A stretch of DNA of 59,921 nucleotides, counting the filler, from Gonapodya sp. JEL0774 (Eukaryota), in the NCBI GenBank assembly GCA_027604505.1. It is 2 parts of 2 records of this genome, joined end to end, with 100 filler letters (N's around TTAATTAATTAA, not from the genome) between each part and the next. Parts side by side here need not be neighbours in the genome. Positions count along the whole stretch, not along the records: positions 1 to 29,965 come from JADIIX010000206.1; 1 more part is not named here. One strand, given 5' to 3'. The translations under genes and the position numbers were made by a program. The notes below the pieces were generated by a model. That model ran no database searches. It was not told the DNA's origin and was given only the letters and a program-made list of their open reading frames with translations. Positions 1 to 36,200 of the stretch are shown here, piece by piece (positions within the stretch are counted from its first letter, which is position 1; the number at the start of each line of letters is the position of its first letter).

Positions 1-289
1 CTTAAGAGGCAAGGCCGCACTCTCTACGGTTTCGGCGGTTAAACGACTCTATCGTCGAAGACAACCACACAGTCGCTCCGCCGTTTGCTAATGTCGCGGG
101 GACCTCTTCCTCACTCTTTCAACTTCAGCGGAATTTTTAAATTCCATCTCGCATAGTTTTCACTTGCATTCGGGTCCCGTGTATTCGAAATAGTCATTTT
201 GAATACATGCTCACCATTCAATCATTTTCCTCTGCTCCGAGTCATTTTTGCAGCCGTGTAATATTCTTCTACATAGTAATTTCACCGTA

Positions 290-349
290 ATGCCCATTAC
301 GTCAGATTGGACGAGATACAACGCCCGTATTCCTTTTTATCCGTCGTGA
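290..349 (+). promoter_or_regulatory. Candidate polyamine-responsive uORF (MPITSDWTRYNARIPFYPS*) upstream of arginine decarboxylase
   Basis: ATG 290 to TGA 347-349, ending CCG TCG TGA (Pro-Ser-stop). It lies upstream of a polyamine biosynthesis gene, and its C-terminus YNARIPFYPS resembles the ODC/AZIN1 uCC end. Confidence 0.6.
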
Positions 350-420: not shown

Positions 421-664
421 GTGAGTGTGTACTGAATCGCGAAATCCGTCATGCCGTCGATTTCGTCGCTGGTGAAACAATGCCTCCGTCTTCCATGGCT
501 CCTCACGGTTTCCTGGTCATATCCGACAGGAGTTGAGGTTCCTTTGAGAGCGGGGGACCGATCGCGGAGAATCGATCGCTGAGAAATCTTTCTTGTCTGA
601 GGCCGGCTCCAGCTCATCTCGATTGGGCTCGTGCATCGATCACATTTATCGACCACCATCGCAG
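421..664 (+). other. Probable 5' leader intron of the ADC gene
   Basis: GTGAGT donor at 421 and GCAG acceptor ending 664, 4 nt before ATG 669 (context atcATGg). Splicing would remove several out-of-frame ATGs. Confidence 0.45.
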
Positions 665-668
665 AATC

Positions 669-3600
669 ATGGCTGCAAAGTCCGGAAACAAAGGCCTTGC
701 GATACTTCATTCTCAGCAGATAGTTGCTGGTCTTCCGGGGAACGATCCCGCACGTCATCCGCGCGAGCCTCTTCCAACCCATCTTCCAGCACTTCCAAGT
801 CTGCTCGTGGAAGAAACCCCTTCGGTTCATGTGATCGCGCCGTCAAATGCTCCTTCATCAGTGGACCTTCTTGGTGTACAAGCCATGGGCTTTCCGTCGC
901 CATCCACACAGCAACTCTCGTTGGATCCGTCAACTGCTTCCCACACACCATCGCATACACCTCTCTCTTCCTCTTTTGAGCATCTTTTGCTGAACTCTTC
1001 TACTGGAGATTCATCGACACCTCAAATGCCTCCGTATCGCCCCCCAACACCGTCCGGCATTGCTCGGCCCAGCACCCCTTCCGTCAATAGTCCTACACAC
1101 ACATATTCTCGCAACCGTAACTCCCAATCCGGACCTTCAGGAGCAAATGGAACCCAGTTAGGTCATGGACCCCACGGTGGCCGCTCCACACCCAAAATGC
1201 CACCCGTTGACTGGTCTATTGATCGTGCGAACCAACATTACAACGTGGAAGGCTGGGCGAATGGCTATTTTTCAATTCGTGGAGCCGTTGTGCCTGGTAA
1301 TGGTGCACCAACTGCACACTCCTCGCCTTCGACGTCGCCAACAAGTGCTGCTGCAGTTGGTCAGTCAGCCTTGGACGCATTATCTGGGCAACAAACCACC
1401 CAACAAACACCGTCTGCTACCAGTAAAGCAGTGGATGGGACTATGCAGGTTCATCCTCTGGGACCAAATGGTCCTACGTTCAATATCATGGACGTGATAG
1501 ATGACATAAAGGAGAAAGGCTTACAGTTTCCGTGGCGAGTGATGTCTCACTTAGCACTCTCCCTGTCTCAAAGCGAACCTCATCCGTATCATTTGACAGT
1601 ATCGTTCGCTTTCTCGATATCCTCCGTGCCCGTGTTATTCTGCTGAATGAGGCCTTCAGTACTGCAATTTCATCACTCAACTATGCTGGGTCGTACCGGG
1701 GTGTTTATCCAGTGAAAGTCAATCAAATGAAAGAAGTAGTCGACGAGATTGTTGATGCAGGGAGACCGTTTCATTATGGTCTGGAGGCGGGAAGCAAGGG
1801 GGAGCTCACTGTTGTGTTGGGGTACAACACGGATCCCGAAGTGAGTGACCCGGTGACTCCATTGTACGCACGAGGTAAATAAATTGTTTGAGTAGGCAAT
1901 TACTTGCTGTAATGGATACAAAGACGACGACTACCTGAGGCTGGCCCTGTTGGGTAGGTACGACATTTTGCCTTTCCTCACAAAACTTCAATTCGCTTGT
2001 ATTATGTACTTCAGGTCGTAAACTTGGTCGTAAAGTCATTGTTATTATTGAGAAACTGACGGAACTGCCTCACCTCCTGCAATTGGCGTCGGAAATGGGT
2101 GTAGAACCTTATCTGGGGCTCCGGTGTAAACTTGCTTCGCGAGGATCCGGGAAATGGGAGTCCTCTGGCGGCGACTTCGCTAAATTTGGACTCACTCTTC
2201 CCGAGCTGATGAGGGCCGTAGCAATGCTGAAAGAGCGAGGAATGGAAAACTGTGCGAAGCTTATTCATTTTCATGTCGGCAGTCAGGTGAGCTCGAAGAC
2301 CATGGATTTCAACCATTGGTAAAGCTGCATTTATGCGCACGTGGCTCTTGCCTCGTAGCTTACAGAGCTTCGCGTGGTCAAGGAAGCGGTAATGGAGGGT
2401 GCCCGCATTTACGCCAAACTTCAGAAAATGGGTCTTGGCATCGAAGTAAGGCGGAACACTTGAATCCAGCTCCGCAATTAATGTTTTGATCGAAATCTTC
2501 TCGCCTTTCAGTACTTCGATATAGGTGGTGGACTTGGCGTGGACTACATAGGAACCCGGTCTGGAGCTGATGGGTCCTCCATGAACTACGACGTTCACGA
2601 GTACGCTTATGATGTTGTGTATACTCTCATGCGGATATGCGTGGAGGAAGGAGTCCCCCAGCCCAATGTTGTGTCCGAATCGGGCCGGGCAATCACAGCG
2701 CACCACGCCCTCGTTATCGTGAACATTTTTGGCACAATATCAGTGGGGAGTCCCGAGGAAATAGCGGCGGTGACTACCCCAACGCCAGGTGAACATGTTA
2801 TCGTGCAGGAGATGAGAAACATTGTTGGGTCGTACACTTCCAGATCCAAAACGGTGAAGTCCTGGCAAGACGCTCAGAGCAAAAAAGAGGATGCGCTGCA
2901 AATGTTTAAGCTGGGAATGCTATCTTTAGAAGACAGGGCAAAAGTGGAGGGTCTTTATTGGGCTGTGGCAAGGAAAATGATGCCCTACACCAAAACCCGC
3001 AGCAGAAAGCTGAGGATTCCAAAGGAAGCCATGGATATCGCCGATAAGATGGCCGATCAGTACATGGCGAACTTCTCCATATTTCAGAGCGTCGTTGATC
3101 ATTGGGGCAGTGAGTGAATCATTTAAGGGATGCACGTCAGCTTTTGTTTCCAAGTGTCCACCATATTGCTGTCTTCAGTCGACCAGACATTCCCAATTAC
3201 ACCTCTACATCGTCTGAATGAAGAGCCTTGTCGAGATTCCATCCTAGTGGACATCACTTGTGACTCAGATGGCAAGATCGACAATTTTGTGGAGGATTAC
3301 GGTACCGACAAGACAATCTCCTTACACACACTGAGACCCGGCGAGGATTACTACATCGGCATATTTTTGACTGGCGCATACCAGGACATAATGGGAAATT
3401 GTAAGTGATGACCTGCCACCACACTTTGCATCACCGATCTTTCACGATTCCAAATTCAGTGCATAACAGTGAGCATGCCAATATCGAAACCCTTTCTGAC
3501 GAATCCTCTAAATACCACTTTTCGTCCCTCCTGCTCCCCCTAATAAGTGTTTGGAAGACTAAATGAAGTACACATTTACATAGGTGAGAGAGCCACCATT

Positions 3601-3958
3601 GTCTTCTGTGAAATCTGAAGACACAAACCTATACTCGATGATGTTCTAGACGACGATGATCCGGAAGATTATTACATTGAAGAAGTTATTCGGGGCGACA
3701 GAGTTGCTGATGTGCTAGGTCGACTGTTTTACAATCCCCAAGATCTCACGCGGAGAGTTAAGGAATCGCTCACAACGTGCATTAGGTCGGGGTCACTCAA
3801 ACCCAAAGAAGGCGTGGCACTTGGCGAGTTTTATGACTCCATGATAAATTCTTACACATACTTGAAAGGTGAGAGAAGCAACCAAACATTCTCCATAGCA
3901 ATTGACGATTTACAATTCTGTTCTGTCGCAATCTTAAACAGGAATGTCACCTCACTAG
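669..3958 (+). CDS. speA: Biosynthetic arginine decarboxylase (SpeA/ADC family, PLP fold III), about 11 coding exons
   Basis: Motifs YNVEGWANGYFSI, YPVKVNQ (PLP Lys), GLEAGSKGEL, CNGYKD, SGKWESSGGDFAKFGL, HFHVGSQ, DIGGGLGVDY, ESGRA, DITCDSDGKID, GAYQDIMGNLHNMFG. Introns at 1535-1599, 1841-1895, 1954-2014, 2287-2358, 2446-2511, 3110-3178, 3401-3459, 3469-3547, 3584-3649, 3869-3941 restore one frame. The start (669 or 1026) and the last exon (ending 3958 or 4044) are uncertain. Confidence 0.93.
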
Positions 3959-4126
3959 CACAACAAAACACTAGTTCTGGATATCCCATGAATTTGTTCT
4001 ATTGTAATCTCATGCAAACAGGAATGTCACCTCACCAGCCATGATGTGACCACTTAAATCCGCCTACAATCGTGCATGCTCAAAATTATTAGGTACCGGA
4101 TATTTCATGGTTATGCACAGCAATAC

Positions 4127-7100
4127 CTAGTCACTATCCAAAACAAAAGAACCAACTTGTGCAAAATCTAGCTGACCCTGTCTGTGCCCTTGCTTGATAT
4201 TTTCCCCATTTCTTCGAGACGGTGTCGCTCTCGAAGTTTCAGGGAACCGGGGCGTCCTAGGTGCTTTCTTCTTTGGTGTTCTCAACACTGTCCGTGGCTC
4301 TGGCCGAAATCTTTCTTTGGTTGGTGTAAGAAGTTCCACCTCCATTGATTTGCCCCATTCAGATTCCTCGTTTTGCTCGATCTCTGTGGCAAAACTGGGA
4401 GAGCGATTATCCAACTTCTTGTCATATCTGCTCTGAAGCACTTCGTCGTCAGTGTCACTAGCTTCCAATTCGTCGCCAATGCTCAATAGCAGGCACAAAA
4501 TGGCATGCTTTCGCTGGGCTGACGTCATCGGATAGTCATCCGATTCAGATCCATCGTACTCTGTTTCTGGGATCTCGACTTGTTCTGACAACACTTCCTT
4601 GTTCCCTTTCTTTGCAACTGCTACAAGTGAAGGGGTTCGAGGTTTCTCCCAAACAACAGTCCTGTACCATTTGAGAACGTTAGGATCGGCAAAAATACTC
4701 CGAGGATCGAATGACTTGAGAAAAAGCGTATTCTACCCAACAACTCATGAGCATGCTTCTTTAAACAGCTTCCTTCAGTTGTGCTCACCAGGCTTTTGCA
4801 TCTGGACAGCGCAACGTAGCCCTGACCCGCAGCAAACATATTCGAAAGATCCAGTGCCACGTGTGACAGACTCATGCCCTGACTTTTGTGAATTGTGAAT
4901 GCGTACCCTAAGACCAGTGGTACCTGCACTCTCCATGCCACCTTTCGGCTATCAACTTCGATGCTCGCACATGTCGGTTCAACAACTCTTGTGATACCAC
5001 AATCAAATTCAACAACCGGCACTCCAGGTGCTGCATCAAACCAAGCATCTAACGTGAAGCGAATATCGCGATCAGTTTCGAACACATCCGAATACCAGCC
5101 GATTGGGTAGTGGGTGTGTGTGCGCGCTTTCCTTTCCATCGGTCTCACAAAGGATTTGATGGTCCCTTTAACCCCATTTGCAAGACCCGCGGAGACATCA
5201 ATGTTCGACAAAAGAATGACCTAATTGAAAAAAAAGTAGGATCACGGGCTGGATTGGATTGGAGATCCGACAAGTGGAACGAGGACTCGCTATAGCGCTC
5301 ACCCTTGCCCCCACCTTCAAATCAACAACCTCAGCTACATTTAACGTCCTCAAAAGACTTCGTTCCTGGGCCAGCTCCTCCATCTCCTCACTTTCACTTC
5401 CACTACTAGCTGCATTTCCGTCCTTGCAAACGAGTCGCATGTGCGACCCCGGTAGAGCCCTCAATCTGATGGCGTTCTCCGTTGCCGCTTGGTCCCTTCG
5501 CGACGTGAGCTTGGTAACCAACTTCTCCTCTTCAGGTGTCATACTGCACACACGCTCAGACAGCTTTCGGGCGGCAACTGTGGACACCTCGCCTCTCCGA
5601 ATGCCCGCAAGCAGACTGACGAATGCTGAGTCGGCTTGGCGAAAGACAACTGATAACTGAATTGAGCGGAAGTGACATAACTCCCAGAGTGGGGATTCGA
5701 AGGCATAAATGGGAGTTCGAACCACCTGAGAAGAACACGGTGTCAAAGGGAACGTCTGCGTCGCTTGTAGAGGAACAAAGGCTCCAGAGAACCGCTCCAA
5801 TGATGAAACCCCATGATCGGAGCCTCCATTTGCTTCTCCAAGATTCTGTGATGGTTGCGGTGTGGGCGGAGCTCGGATTTGCTTCGCCGATGCGGGATGC
5901 TCCACATGGGTCTGATAAGGCTCCTCGAGCAAGGAATACACAGTAGAGAACGTAGTCGGTGGCTTTACTGGTGGTAGTTGAAAGAACTGCTGAGGAGTGG
6001 GATTCAGAATGGCAAATCACGGACAATAAGGCACAGTATCACTCACGTCACCAACAACTAAAACTGAAACAAAGTCAAGATGATGTTGCGAGAGTTAGTG
6101 ACAAGTCGCGTGGCAGACTATCAGCCTCACCTTGCATACCGCCAAATGGCGTTGCCAGGCATTTTTCTTCAACGAGATGAAATACACCAATAGGTGTGGC
6201 ATGCCTCCTTCGCTTCACCAAAAATTTTCCTGGGTGTGGGGAGTCCCCGATCCCCAACTCCCTCCAGCGAACCAGAGACGGATCTGCATTGGTCAGCTTG
6301 GTCTCATCCGCATCCGATAAACGTCCTAGAGCTCGCTCTCTGAGGAGAAACGCACTCTTGGCAGCTCTTGCACGAACTGCACGAAGCACCTGATCGAGCG
6401 TTTCAAAAAACCCGGCAGACACCATTGAAATCTCATCCAGGATCAGAAGTTGAGTCGATATGATGCGAAGTAGTGCGCGGACACGCTTTGAAGTCCTCGT
6501 TAATGTCCCTACGTATGACGACACTGACATGTCACCTTTATCGATTCCGGCGAACGAGTTGATGGTCATGCCACCCAGTTGTACCGCACTGATACCAGTG
6601 GAAGCTGTGACACAGATACGGCGGGAACAATTGGACTGTTCAGATACAGAGCTCTCCACTCCGTTGATACAATCAGTAGTGGTGTGGGGAGAAAACTGTT
6701 GTGAGCAAGTTGCGTTGAGGTAATGCAATTTTCATTTCATTAAAGAGGTTCGTGAAACTGACCGTCTCGACAATTCTTCTGAGCAAAAAAGACTTTCCCG
6801 CTGTACAGGGGCATTAATGAACAGAAAACAGTTCCGGCGAACTGGTAAATACTTTGACAATTTCGATGTGCCCGTCTCTCGCTCACCTCCTCCTGGCCCC
6901 GTCATGAACACATTGTGACCCTCTTTGAGAAGTTCTATGACATGCTCTTGCTCGCTGGTCATGGAAAAACCTCGCTCGTGCTCAAACTCTTTAGGCGGTA
7001 AGGGGAAATGCGTTGCTGTTGAGTCATGAGCTGTGCCAGTTGTGTCTCCAGAATGAGATCCGAGACCAATCGAGGTCGACTGGAAATCATGTGCGTGTCC

Positions 7101-29858: not shown

Positions 29859-30258
29859 TGTGGAATGACCTGTGAGACCTAACGGCGACCCCCCCCCGAC
29901 CCCCCCCCCCCCCTGCCCCCTCTGTTTTCCCCACCCCCCACTCACCCCACCACAGACACCTGCACNNNNNNNNNNNNNNNNNNNNNNNNNNNNNNNNNNN
30001 NNNNNNNNNTTAATTAATTAANNNNNNNNNNNNNNNNNNNNNNNNNNNNNNNNNNNNNNNNNNNNGGCAAATGGAGGCGGATCGACCGAGTAGTGGGGCA
30101 CCAAATGTGGAATGACGGGGTGTGGGACGAGAATCAGGGTCCCGAGTGTATATGTATTCTGTGTGTCCAGTCGCCTCGGACTGCTATGTGAGCGCGTCAT
30201 ACAAAAATATATCTACACTACACTACGTCCCGCACGTCGACTCAGTGGTCATACAACA
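29859..30258. mobile_element. LTR-like element spanning the assembly gap
   Basis: Starts TGTGGAATGACC and ends GGTCATACAACA (imperfect terminal inverted repeat, TG...CA). Flanks GAACT and GACCT resemble a 5-bp target-site duplication with one mismatch. Confidence 0.6.
29966..30065. other. Assembly gap with artificial six-frame-stop linker
   Basis: 44 N + TTAATTAATTAA (30010-30021) + 44 N. Confidence 0.97.
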
Positions 30259-30259
30259 G

Positions 30260-33200
30260 ACCTCACTGTACAAGTTGCTAATGGCAGATTGGAGTTAACT
30301 CATGCGCTGCTTGTCTACAGGGTAGACAAATTGTTTGCAAGGTGAATTTTCAGGGAGATTTTATAACCTAACTTGCTGGATCAATTACACAAACTCACTC
30401 GTCACAATACTTGTGGCACCAAAGATTGTCCTCCACTGGCTCAAAACCTGTCCCACTACTCTGACAGTTTCTCTGCAGAGGCTGTAGTATATATCATACC
30501 CACCTGGCCAGCTGTTGAGTGCACAAGGCCATGCAACAATTGAAAACATTCCTCCAAGTCCATAACAAACATCGTCTCCTGCTCCAGTTTAACAAAGGTG
30601 CAATCTGAATCTCAATCTTGGCTACAGTCTTAGTCATCCATCCAGCTGTATGTGATCTGCTCTGTCATTGTGAGTATCATGTCCTTCCTCATCTCTGGGA
30701 GCGCCTGTCATGACCAGAGAGACCCAGTTCAGCAACCACCTTTGCGTCTCACCTCTATGAGTGGCAGATACATTTTCTCTTGAGCTTAATCTACAGCTTG
30801 ATCTATACCATCCCCTTGTCTTGACAACCCACCATACTGCAGCAAGCAGTGTGGTGGTGGTGTCATCTCAGACTGCTCTTGTGGGAGCTTGTGCAGCCTG
30901 ACAATGCTGTGGGGGCTGATGGCTACATGAGGTGAGTTTGCAGGGAAAGGACCCTGGTATATCAGAATTGCAGCTCTGCCAAATTTTTGTATGTGGAAAC
31001 TTGATGGAGTGAGGGGATTGAGTAGGGGAAACAAGTGTTGCATAATGTGAGCAGTCACTTCAAACTTGCCACTTGTTGGTGGTTTCCACATTTAAAAGTG
31101 CATGCTCACTCTTTAGCTATGCATTCTTAGCCAAGGTCTTCTATAAATGTTGTGTTCTCATGACCTCTTACGAGCTTTCATTCCAACAAACACCCCAAAT
31201 CTGACCTGGCTCCTAAGGTCCTGAGATTCATTGCAAGCAGAGGGGAGTTTTGGGTCCCACTTTGAAGCAAGGAGTTTTCCGCTGGGACACATTGCAAAGA
31301 CAACCATTGGGAGGTGGACCAGAGTGACCAGTGTCTTAGACTGCAGAATGTACAGGAAAACATTGCAAAGAATTTGGTCAAGACTGAAACAGATTTAACT
31401 GCAGTCTACTTGAGTAGCTGTGTGTGAAATTGGTCCAGGTGTGACACTTTGTTGAGGAGGCTCACAAAGAGGTCCCAAAGGGGGGTTCTGAGCATCAGTA
31501 GTAATGCAACCCCCCCCCCCCCAAAAAAAAAAAAATATGACTGGATCAACTGCATAGACTATTTTGTGAAACTGAGTTTTCCAGGGAGGTCAACTAGTTT
31601 GGTGGTGCAGGAGGACCTAAAAGCCAGAAATACTGAAATTCCCACTAAACCAACCAAATACGGCATAACAACAGTCTCAACCGATACTTCCAATTGCCCA
31701 GAGCAGCCAACAAAGCTGAGGTGTGGAACATCTCTGTGAGGCAGGCAACAAAAGGCCTACACGTTGGCGTTCCCCCCACCAGAACTCTCTTGCTTCTTTC
31801 TGAAACATGGTCATCGCATTCCAAAGCCTGTTTCTTTCTGAAACATAATCATGGTGTTCCAAATCCGCATTTGCACTGCGCCCCCCCCCCCCCCTCTCAC
31901 CCTGTTCTGGTACGTTGGCACCTTGCAGAACTGCTCTTAAACAGTTTCTGAGATGGTTTGAGGCTGATCACGCCCTGATGCCTCTCTGTCAGCCTATCCT
32001 ATGAATTGCAGTATCACATCATCTGATCCCCACCCAGCGTCTTCTGTTCTCCCCAACGTAGGAACACCGCCTATGCCGCCCAATGTTTGGGTATGACTTT
32101 TTAGCTCCGCTCAGAGAAAGTGAGACTGTCCCTGAGGCACCTCCCTTGCACACTTACTTTGATGCTGATCGATGACTACCTGGGCTAGTGCTTGGGTTGT
32201 TGCCCCCCCTTCCTGTCCTCTCTTGCTCATTTCCCATTCCCACCCCAACATTTGTCCTGCTGTCCCTCAGGGGAATCTGCAGGAACTGTCTTCTCCACAT
32301 GTGCCAACCAACCTTCCCCTGCAGAAATTTGCACACTCCATGATGTGCTTGCTGAGGCAACTGTTGCTACAGCAGCTAGCCCAGTGGTCACTCCCACTCC
32401 AGATTTACCGCCTGCTCTGCTAGGTGGAGGACTGATCTTTTTTAACCCCCTCCCCCAAAAATCCTGTGCTACAGTCTCCCCTGTCACCTTCCTAACAATC
32501 AGCATGGATAATCTATTTTTGTGGATCACTGACCTTGTCTCACAGGTTATCTTTCTTGGAGGTCATTTGAACAGGATCACGGTGCCTGCCCTCAGTGGGG
32601 ATGGATTGGGATTTGATGTCTTCTCTTGTCAATGACAATGCTTTGAGGGATATCCAAGGGGCAGCAACAGACACTTAGATTTCTAGCAACATTTCTATGC
32701 TGGGCATCTCAACCCACAATCTTTCGTTATCCATTCTCCTGAATATACAAGACACGGGGCTCTGCTTCCCTGTCCCTGATGCTTAAATCTTTTGTTTTGG
32801 AATGAGGATCTGCACCAATCAAACCCAGTGAGTAACTTGTCTCTGATCAAGAGTTCCTGGCTCAATTGGTACCTGTGTGCATTCTAAGTCATCCACATGC
32901 TACACCCGGCTCAGACAATCACAGCAAGTGGGTAATGCCAAGTCCTCTTGTGATATCCTACTCTGTGAGTGCTGGAGGAGCAGGATGCAACCTCAAACCC
33001 AGCAAAGATAAAGTGGAGTTGTTTTGAGAACATGCAGGTAGTCTGGCAGTTGGGGTACTCTGGGATCTCTGGATCAACTTTGTTGACACCCTTTGCCTAA
33101 GGTTACTGACCTTCAGACTTCTGAAAATCCTTGGGATTGCTGAGCTATAATACTCTCAACGCTTAAACTAGATAAATTGTTGTGATATGCCCACTGCAAA

Positions 33201-36200
33201 TGTGGCATCTTTCATATCCAATATCTCCAAATTGGGGGAAAACACTGCACCAATGCTTGGATGGCAAGTTGTGGCAAGTTTAGGAGATGGAGTACCACTG
33301 TATTGTCTACCTGCACTAATTCTACTTCATTCCATGGACAGATTTCTTGAAAGATGGGCAATTAGCAAGGTTTTACTCTCAACCCTCTTGGAGTTTGTCT
33401 GCCTCAAACAAAGCTGCGTCTAAACTTGCTTCATTGTCAGTTCCAGCATCTTGTTCAAGTTCTTGGGGACTCCAATTGTGGCGGTGCAGATGGACCTAAA
33501 AGTTCCACCCAGCATCACCACAATTCAATGTGATAATGCCCTCCTAAAAGTGTATGGTCAAAGAGGTCTTCCAACTTTGTCCTAGCTTTGCGTGGGAAGA
33601 ACTCATATCAGATTGACCAAGAGATATGAACCACTAGAACTGCTGAGGACATTTTGCTGACAGTGGCTACATGAGTTGCAGGTTAAATTGGAGGCCTTGT
33701 GGACTTAATTGACACTGGGAAGCAATTTTGTCAGTGTTTTTGTGGAGGAAAAGCTGGATGTGGAAGGTGGGAAGGGACAGTGAGGTGCCACATTGCCTCA
33801 AGTCCCTTCAGCGTGTCTTTCGGCCAGCCATGAATGTTGACTGGATTGCTGATACCATATGGGACTAACCCTTTGGAATACCAGCTTGGAATTCATTGGA
33901 TCCAGGCAAACAGAGAAGATACTCAAACCTTGCGCCCAGTATGTGTGGCCACAGCTCAAAGGGGGACTGTCACCCTGTGACTACCCCTTCCACAGTCAGG
34001 TAGCTCTGGTGTGAGGGGACAGTTGCAGATGTGGCACTGTAGTACTTAGCACAGGGCCTCCAGACCTTCCTCATTGTTAGCACCATGGGTCTGCAGGTGA
34101 GTATTTGTCTCTCGTGCCACTGTGTCTCCCCACCTTCCACACGATCCTACCACAAACACACCCACACATTTGCTTCCCTGTCGCAATCGCATCCACAAGG
34201 CCTCCAATTTGGCCTTCTACTTGTAAAGGCACTGTAGGCAAAATCTCCCTGGCAATTGTAGTTGGTTTGTCACTTTCGGTTGATCCGATTGTAGTTCCTC
34301 TGACACAAATCTGGGATGACATTGGAAGACCTCGCTAACCATATGCTTTCAGGAGGGCTTCCCAGGACTGCATCACATTGAAGTTGTGGTGATGCCTGGT
34401 GGAACTTTTAATTCCATCTGCACTGCCACAATCAAACTGGCTGAAAATGAAAGTTGATTCCCCAAGAACCTGAACAAGATGCTGGAACTGGCGCAGAAGT
34501 GAGTTGTAGGCAGCTTTGTTGGAGGCAAAATACTTTGAGACTGCTCAAAAGTGGAACTTTGCGAATTGATTGTCTTTGGAGAAATCTATCTGCAGAATGA
34601 AGTAAATATCATGTGCATAGACAATACATTGGTACTCCATGTCCCAAACTTGCCAGATCTGGCCATCCAGGCATTTGTGTGATGTTTCCCCAGTTTGCGG
34701 TGATTGAATGTAGGAGATTCTGCACAGGCTGCAGTGAGTGTATCTCAACAACTTGTCAAGCTTGGACCTTTGACAGTAAAATGGGTCTGCAATCTCGAGT
34801 ATTTTCAGAAGCGTAAAGGTGAGGTGACCTTTGGCAAATAGTGTTGACGAGGTGGATCCCAAGAACCTCAGTCACTGACCTGCCTCTGTTTTCCTGAAAT
34901 ACTCTGTCCTTTCTTCACCAGGCTGAGGATTGTGACTTGCTCCTTGAGCCCTCTCAGAGAAGGAGAGATGTGCGCAAGTAGCATGTGACGAACATTTTCA
35001 AACGATGATGACAGGGATATTTGTGCCAGACCTGCTGCGTTGACAGCATTCAATATTCTGGTCCAATTGTGCTCTTGTTCTGCTGATTGAGGATCCCCTG
35101 AAGCATTTGCTGGAATAGCAGAAGTCTAATCAAGAGGACTTGCTAAAGTGTAAACATCAAAATGGTGACTTCTTGCTGTGGAATTCCAGGTTGTGGGGAC
35201 AACCAGTGTCTGCAGTGCTGGTTGAGGAGTGACTCTCACTGTTTTGTGTACCAAGGTCGACAATCTGTGCGAATGAGAAAGACAAAAGTCATGAAACAAG
35301 AACATTCGCCACCAACAATACTTGACAAGAATACAATGAAATCCAGGACTCACAAGTTTTTCTGGTTGTTTGAATTGCAACTAGAGGACTGAAGCTGGAC
35401 AAGAAAACCGTGTGGTCAGCTGAGGGGGTGCTGGATTGCAATGCAGTGTACATACTCCGGCATCTGGATTGCCAATTGTCAAGTTCTCTTGATAGTTTTT
35501 GGAATAGTTTCTGAGAGATTTTACGACCTGCTCTTTGAACTTGAGTTCTTCAACGAGAGGCTCGAGCAATTCTAGGCACTCTTATGCAAGACTGAGTTGC
35601 TTGAATCCACTCAGCGTAGCATCCAATATCTTTTGATTGAGATTGAGTGTAAATCTTGCATGGCAGGAATTTTCCATTGCTCAGTCTGTAAAAAGCACCA
35701 AGCAGGGGATTGCAGATCTCAACCGGGAAAAAGTTTGGCTTAGCACATAATTCAGAGTCCACCAAAACTAGAGCAAGATTTCAAGTGCCTGATTTTCCAC
35801 AAAGTTCTTCAGCTCATTCACCACATAAAGCTTCAATATCTCTGGAAGCATTGCCACAACCAAAAATGCATGTCGCTGCGTTGGTGCAATGACGGCATGG
35901 TGTTTCAAACACCGTACTTGCAGATTGAATAGCACAAGAGCAACATCTCCTTGACGTGATTCAATTGGGCATACCTTCAATTTGCTGATCATGGATGTAA
36001 GGTGCAATTGCTCGGAGAGAACACCCTCTCACTGATTTGAGCGGCACCATCTCGCCTCTCCAGCTCCACTTCTGCATCTAAGCCACTTAACTAAGAGAGA
36101 ACACCATTCACCATTACAGCAGACGGCAGAGCGCCAAATGCATGATTGGTGAGTGGTCGGAGGACTGCAAGCTCATCTCGAAGGAATACACTCACAGAAA

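Follow-up and report, generated by a model that had tools for sequence, protein, structure and literature searches.

The 5' leader of an arginine decarboxylase gene of Gonapodya sp. JEL0774 holds a short upstream open reading frame (uORF, positions 290-349) that ends in Pro-Ser-stop, and from the analysis of this one genome we put at roughly two in three the probability that the uORF is a polyamine feedback element acting on an intact and horizontally acquired enzyme gene. The DNA that was analysed, referred to here as the window, comprises 59,921 nucleotides, filler included, and the features discussed below are listed in Table 1.

Table 1. Features in and around the leader of the arginine decarboxylase gene (positions of the window).
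Feature	Position	Strand	Description
21-codon AUG ORF	91..156	+	Sequence; may precede the transcription start
Stop-free extension of the uORF frame	203..289	+	Near-cognates ATA203, ATC221, ATT224, TTG248, ATT263
27-codon AUG uORF	207..290	+	Sequence; weak context gaatacATGc
19-codon AUG uORF	290..349	+	Sequence; ends P-F-Y-P-S-stop; end resembles AZIN1 uORF end
Predicted 5' leader intron	421..529	+	Sequence prediction; GTGAGT...CTCAC...GACAG
SpeA-type arginine decarboxylase gene	669..3958	+	Model of 874 aa, 10 coding introns
Predicted 176-residue N-terminal extension	669..1196	+	40% Pro/Ser/Thr; omitted by public annotation

Translation from ATG290 to the TGA at 347-349 gives MPITSDWTRYNARIPFYPS followed by the stop, the Pro-Ser-stop being encoded as CCG TCG TGA (341-349), which confirms the frame and the ending reported in a preliminary description of this DNA; the open frame that it had traced back to 203 is likewise borne out by the sequence. 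The distance of 320 nt given there to the start of the decarboxylase corresponds to the in-frame ATG669 (gaatcATGg), which lies 320 positions past 349, with 319 bases between the uORF stop and AUG669, or 210 nt once the predicted leader intron is removed. AUG290 (accgtaATGc) has a middling start context with a purine, G, at -3 and C at +4; at AUG669 these positions are A and G, respectively. Three features were absent from that first account, namely the lack of a Pro-Pro pair, the predicted intron at 421-529 and the ATG uORF at 207-290. The window appears to begin at a contig end, as its first assembly gap is at 29966 and the identical protein of the public annotation, P0001, is recorded on a contig of 29,965 bases; just 289 bases would then lie 5' of the uORF. 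The two strands of the window together contain 3,802 stop-ending frames, of which 24 end in Pro-Ser-stop and a single one, the uORF itself, in P-aromatic-x-P-S-stop.

Sections of PMC2811004 describe the uCC as an element of the leaders of ODC homologues that has adjacent prolines and a mostly non-AUG start and that ends, in animals, in Pro-Ser-stop; AUG-start versions are described there for vertebrate ODC and AZI2, and polyamine-pathway decarboxylase genes are presented as a class in which such uORFs abound. For human AZIN1 the S5 Fig legend of PMC9648851 prints a uORF that ends in FDFNAEPPWEPS, and the ending FNAEPPWEPS given in the preliminary description is right by that legend. The gapless alignment claimed for it also holds: over the last ten AZIN1 residues the uORF shows five identities in ten positions and two aromatic exchanges, with a BLOSUM62 score of 27 that ranks first among the 2,691 window frames of at least 10 codons (runner-up 15). 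In simulations, for which the AZIN1 reference motif was picked post hoc, this score was reached by 8 of 483,003 frames and in 4 of 20,000 leaders of 668 nt (about 2 in 10,000 per leader). Exact convolution gave a match chance of 1-3 in 100,000 per frame, or about 6-9 in 10,000 given Pro-Ser-stop, and where P-aromatic-x-P-S-stop is given, the first five residues match at about 0.5-1 in 100, the convolution value being about 5.5 in 1,000. A proline-rich chance frame among 11,544 frames from unrelated loci scored 31. The likeness of the predicted peptide to the AZIN1 end is beyond chance; resemblance to the uCC is confined to the ten C-terminal residues, within a uORF that is without adjacent prolines and reads I-P-F where AZIN1 has P-P-W.

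Relatives were sought in a single metagenome motif scan whose pattern covered both endings, that of the uORF and the AZIN1 type, and which may miss relatives because it demanded a TCN serine, a TAA or TGA stop, and N-A. The scan returned 46 loci in 25 families, with tblastn applied to all 46 and Pfam to 34 selected downstream ORFs. None of the 46 loci precedes an arginine decarboxylase, and one, on the metagenome contig L013, precedes an ODC-like gene. On the minus strand of the first 360 bases of L013 there is a 46-codon AUU frame ending in FQLDFNADPPWDPS and a stop, 105 nt 5' of that gene; it appears to be a complete AUU-initiated uCC, the ODC call having been read from Pfam matches and sequence, and it is a working positive control of the scan. 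Aromatic-N-A, in the form F-N-A, is common to the two uCCs, AZIN1 and L013. The L013 score is partly circular because the search pattern was built from both sequences; the main statistics use the published AZIN1 motif. A 12-locus family ending in YNAHLPFPPS-stop looked promising but was rejected, as 58 frames taken from three of its loci yielded no polyamine gene and the motif that its members share was imposed by the pattern. Twelve loci (L009, L012, L016, L020, L026-L029, L037, L042, L044 and L046) are of low GC and share a repeat-like stretch of 1-3 kb at ~70-100% identity, in which no protein family could be recognised; one of the copies has a DAD-family exon close by.

For the remaining 24 of the 25 motif families neither tblastn nor Pfam placed an ODC- or ADC-like gene downstream, and many are antisense to long ORFs, a result that speaks for the unlikely alternative that the frame at 290-349 is a chance ORF, or lies 5' of the transcription start, with no regulatory role and an AZIN1 likeness picked afterwards from a very large scan. 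The absence of the hallmark Pro-Pro points the same way, as does the ease with which a Pro-Ser-stop frame of any kind arises, about 1 in 10 simulated 668-nt leaders (2,030 of 20,000) holding one. The rarity of the full match in the same simulation argues against chance, however, and so do its AUG start, the second uORF that overlaps it by one base and its position ahead of a decarboxylase of the putrescine pathway.

With respect to class, the uORF shares with the uCCs of AZIN1, animal ODC homologues and L013 the Pro-Ser-stop, the gapless pattern aromatic-N-A-x-x-P-aromatic-x-P-S and a place in the leader of an alanine-racemase-fold putrescine-synthesis decarboxylase, 105-210 nt ahead of the main AUG. 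It differs in its length of 19 codons versus 46-52, in its start, which is AUU in AZIN1 and L013 and AUG at 290 here (in-frame ATT224 and ATT263, both with A at -3, are also present), and in its host gene, a bacterial-type arginine decarboxylase that shares just 22% identity with the L013 ODC and belongs to the same fold family without being an ODC. The extension at 203-289 bears no peptide resemblance to the L013 uCC. Since it lacks the Pro-Pro(-Trp) stall motif, stands before a gene other than ODC and probably starts at AUG, the uORF is not filed as a uCC; of the uCC feedback switch originally proposed, the AZIN1-like end stands but the assignment to the uCC does not.

The uORF would plausibly fit a Pro-Ser-stop brake of the HOL1/AdoMetDC type better than a uCC. 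It has in common with that class (HOL1, plant and algal AdoMetDC) a Pro-Ser-stop in the leader of a polyamine gene, and we infer its presence in the mRNA. Stalling occurs at PPW in AZIN1 according to parts of PMC10855120, PMC11550727 and bioRxiv 710061, and at Pro-Ser-stop in HOL1 according to the first two of these, so that with Pro-Pro-Trp missing a termination stall of the HOL1 type is likelier here than an elongation stall of the AZIN1 type. As described in the same two papers, the HOL1 uORF of Saccharomyces cerevisiae, MLLLPS-stop, is leaky-scanned and, like the present one, is short and ends in Pro-Ser-stop without Pro-Pro, which makes a termination stall under eIF5A inhibition the natural model, although HOL1 is a transporter gene, its uORF has six codons, and only the PS-stop is in common. 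The AdoMetDC uORFs of a diatom, Galdieria and Volvox end in aromatic-Pro-Ser as the uORF does (Supplementary Fig. 2 of PMC2811004), and three of the four diatom, red-algal and Volvox uORFs shown there begin with Met-Pro.

The 207-290 uORF, which is new here, overlaps AUG290 by one base in the manner of plant AdoMetDC, the last base of its TAA being the A of ATG290 (TAATG). The same junction stands ahead of 57 of the 2,065 ATGs in the window, which is the chance rate. In the tiny/small uORF pair of plant AdoMetDC, as presented in PMC2811004, this overlap is accompanied, as here, by a weaker first and a stronger second AUG, whereas the land-plant tiny uORF has 2-3 codons versus 27 here, the small uORF 48-55 versus 19, and the enzyme is another one. 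At low polyamine levels many ribosomes would leak past AUG290 and start at AUG669, by analogy with HOL1 and plant AdoMetDC, or, alternatively, the overlapping 207-290 frame would carry them past AUG290. A frame of 27 codons, in place of 2-3, is long for reinitiation, which counts against the model. At high polyamine levels eIF5A would be inhibited and termination at the Pro-Ser-stop would slow, whereupon a queue of ribosomes could reach back over AUG290, raise the number of starts there and cause enzyme synthesis to drop; the distance from AUG290 to the Ser codon is 54 nt, about two ribosome lengths.

The predicted leader intron begins with a GTGAGT at 421 that is the highest-scoring of 134 candidate donors in 1-1196, using a matrix derived from the ten introns of the gene. 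Downstream of this donor is an AG-to-AG gap of 104 nt, a length attained in 44 of 7,355 gaps, and a branch-like CTCAC at 502 and a CAG at 529 complete the prediction. At 109 nt the intron would be longer than the others of the gene (55-79), and it contains the ATGs at 451, 480 and 495; its removal leaves 210 nt without an ATG before AUG669, where 3.3 would be expected. An intron at 421 implies a transcription start upstream of 421, a point in favour of a uORF within the mRNA; a start at 350-420 would account for the intron as well, and this speaks for the alternative in which the frame lies outside the mRNA. Donors ahead of the uORF are weak (best 3.7, versus 9.8), although four weak donors at 276-346 fall within the range of the weakest true donors of the gene (2.9-4.5), for which reason splicing through the uORF is possible.

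Plant arginine decarboxylases are of separate origin. uORFs of another kind are already known on their SpeA-type enzymes, both on carnation ADC (cited in PMC8699553) and on Arabidopsis ADC2/SPE2, where a CUG/AUU-initiated, hairpin-linked uORF represses independently of its peptide (bioRxiv 2021.03.25.436978), and the likeness to the present case lies in a uORF, repressive in plants and putatively so here, ahead of a eukaryotic SpeA-type arginine decarboxylase. The Arabidopsis precedent and the purine at -3 of AUG290 are the grounds for a distinctly improbable alternative, in which the uORFs are translated and damp the enzyme irrespective of peptide and polyamine, through ribosome capture or nonsense-mediated decay (NMD), or respond to arginine or agmatine. 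The uORF stop lies 71 nt ahead of the predicted exon junction at 420, a distance that would suit NMD. Damping of this sort nevertheless leaves unexplained why ten residues resemble those of a polyamine sensor, and the plant precedent relies on a hairpin, whereas the RNA of 200-420 folds no better than shuffled sequences (z 0.84) and a role for RNA structure is unsupported.

The arginine decarboxylase gene is intact and intron-bearing, and encodes a predicted enzyme. Its 874-aa model shows ~62% identity with Anaeromyxobacter SpeA across 645 aligned residues and carries all six of the six PLP and active-site motifs checked, which are common to that SpeA. P0001, the protein of the public annotation, clears the speA equivalog cut-offs of NF003763 (724 bits, cut-off 369) and TIGR01273 (634.8, cut-off 624.1), so the SpeA-type identity given in the preliminary description is supported by profile cut-offs and gene model alike. 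One exon was 100% identical to P0001, which its source labels as hypothetical and assigns to Gonapodya sp. JEL0774; the next matches of the exon search were 54-59% identical and, among the matches listed, those named by organism were Anaeromyxobacteraceae. In a quick maximum likelihood tree of 41 sequences (P0001 minus its first 78 residues, 20 close matches and 20 distant representatives) the enzyme was sister to the Anaeromyxobacter clade with an SH-aLRT of 99. The arginine decarboxylase of this fungal lineage was likely acquired by horizontal transfer, its nearest relatives in these comparisons being bacterial.

Such a transfer has already been published for Gonapodya prolifera (KXS13513.1, PMC11291939), with a protein of 808 aa, nine introns, a donor near Anaeromyxobacter dehalogenans and the position of sole fungal protein in its cluster; the main text of that paper assigns KXS13513.1 to Rhizoclosmatium globosum and its supplementary table to G. 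prolifera. The two genes have in common their family, an Anaeromyxobacter-like donor and many gained introns (nine there, ten coding introns modelled here). The word 'polyamine' is absent from the main text of PMC11291939, and the rows and parts of it examined are silent on the leader of KXS13513.1. KXS13513.1 was not among the matches listed in our protein or profile searches.

The start annotated for P0001 is at 1197, in frame with ATG669. The N-terminal extension encoded between them had no match in Pfam, NCBIfam or Atlas, and is plausible given that the orthologue KXS13513.1 has 808 aa (PMC11291939) and the bacterial enzyme 654 aa; that it derives from ODC is a mere conjecture. On the same strand, two micro-exons at 3460-3468 (9 nt) and 3548-3583 (36 nt), missing from P0001, restore the HNMFG motif. 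The first coding intron (1532-1599, + strand) may be of the GC-AG type (GCGAGT at 1535) or may use the poor GTGGCG donor at 1532 chosen by the annotation, both of which keep the frame, and a 20-base repeat (3936-3955 and 4016-4035, + strand) copies the last acceptor and the beginning of the last exon, making two near-identical C-termini possible.

It is very improbable that the uORF descends from a bacterial leader peptide transferred together with the donor speA, as the part with bacterial homology (from near 1185) begins some 850 nt further on, the DNA between them consists of a predicted spliceosomal intron and the low-complexity extension, and the resemblance is to a eukaryotic eIF5A-dependent sensor. 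Of the probability given above to polyamine feedback, the larger share falls to a uORF that evolved anew, which is possible, and the smaller to one taken over from the leader of a host gene for polyamine metabolism, for example ODC, which is proposed tentatively. More doubtful is the particular course of events in which the bacterial gene either was inserted directly after the 5' end of such a host gene (again ODC, for example) or gained a copy of that end, and so inherited the feedback switch ready-made. Antizyme restrains ODC but would likely have no hold on a SpeA enzyme, and hence a translational brake would be needed. In most fungi ODC is the sole putrescine route according to a part of PMC3982577.

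Capture of a host leader, if true, would mean that the animal-type sensor predates the animal-fungal split, contrary to the independent origins of the uCC argued for animals and three fungal groups in PMC2811004, and that the sensor works without Pro-Pro; the same peptide in the ODC leader of the genus, if true, would require the age of the uCC and the count of its origins to be revised. Polyamine feedback through the uORF, if functional, would mean that a gene of bacterial derivation is governed by a eukaryotic polyamine sensor of the eIF5A type, and cases that reveal in such detail how an enzyme gained by horizontal transfer comes under host feedback control are rare. As a natural variant that has aromatic-N-A and Pro-Ser-stop without Pro-Pro, the uORF also separates the two AZIN1 stall elements.

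Further searches covered viral contigs, proteins, profiles, genomes and the literature. The viral-contig scans gave two chance motif matches, with no ODC locus and nothing matching the first half of the uORF. Protein searches showed no second fungal enzyme among the matches listed (the best 120 of 2,683 and the best 120 of 2,930), where the best non-self match, from a bacterium or an unnamed source, had 59% identity; the matches of the profile search were unnamed proteins of at most 51% identity. A genome scan for speA leaders of the donor group gave one enterobacterial speA and no Anaeromyxobacter-group locus among the matches listed. In the literature searched, none of the matches listed described a fungal ADC with a uORF, in agreement with the earlier remark that the combination was not known to have been described in fungi; the alignments of Ivanov 2008/2018, Vindu 2021, and Dever and Ivanov 2018 could include early-diverging fungi.

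Elsewhere in the window, a scan of 116 frames revealed no further polyamine gene. An inverted pair of ~750 nt with 71% identity (33063-33782 and 34118-34867) contains no stop-free frame of at least 115 codons. A PIF1-like helicase gene (4130-6731, - strand) converges on the decarboxylase gene, and the other genes of the window encode a JmjC/ARID demethylase, a cyclin, a protein O-mannosyltransferase, tandem 2OG-Fe(II) oxygenases and DUF2985 proteins.
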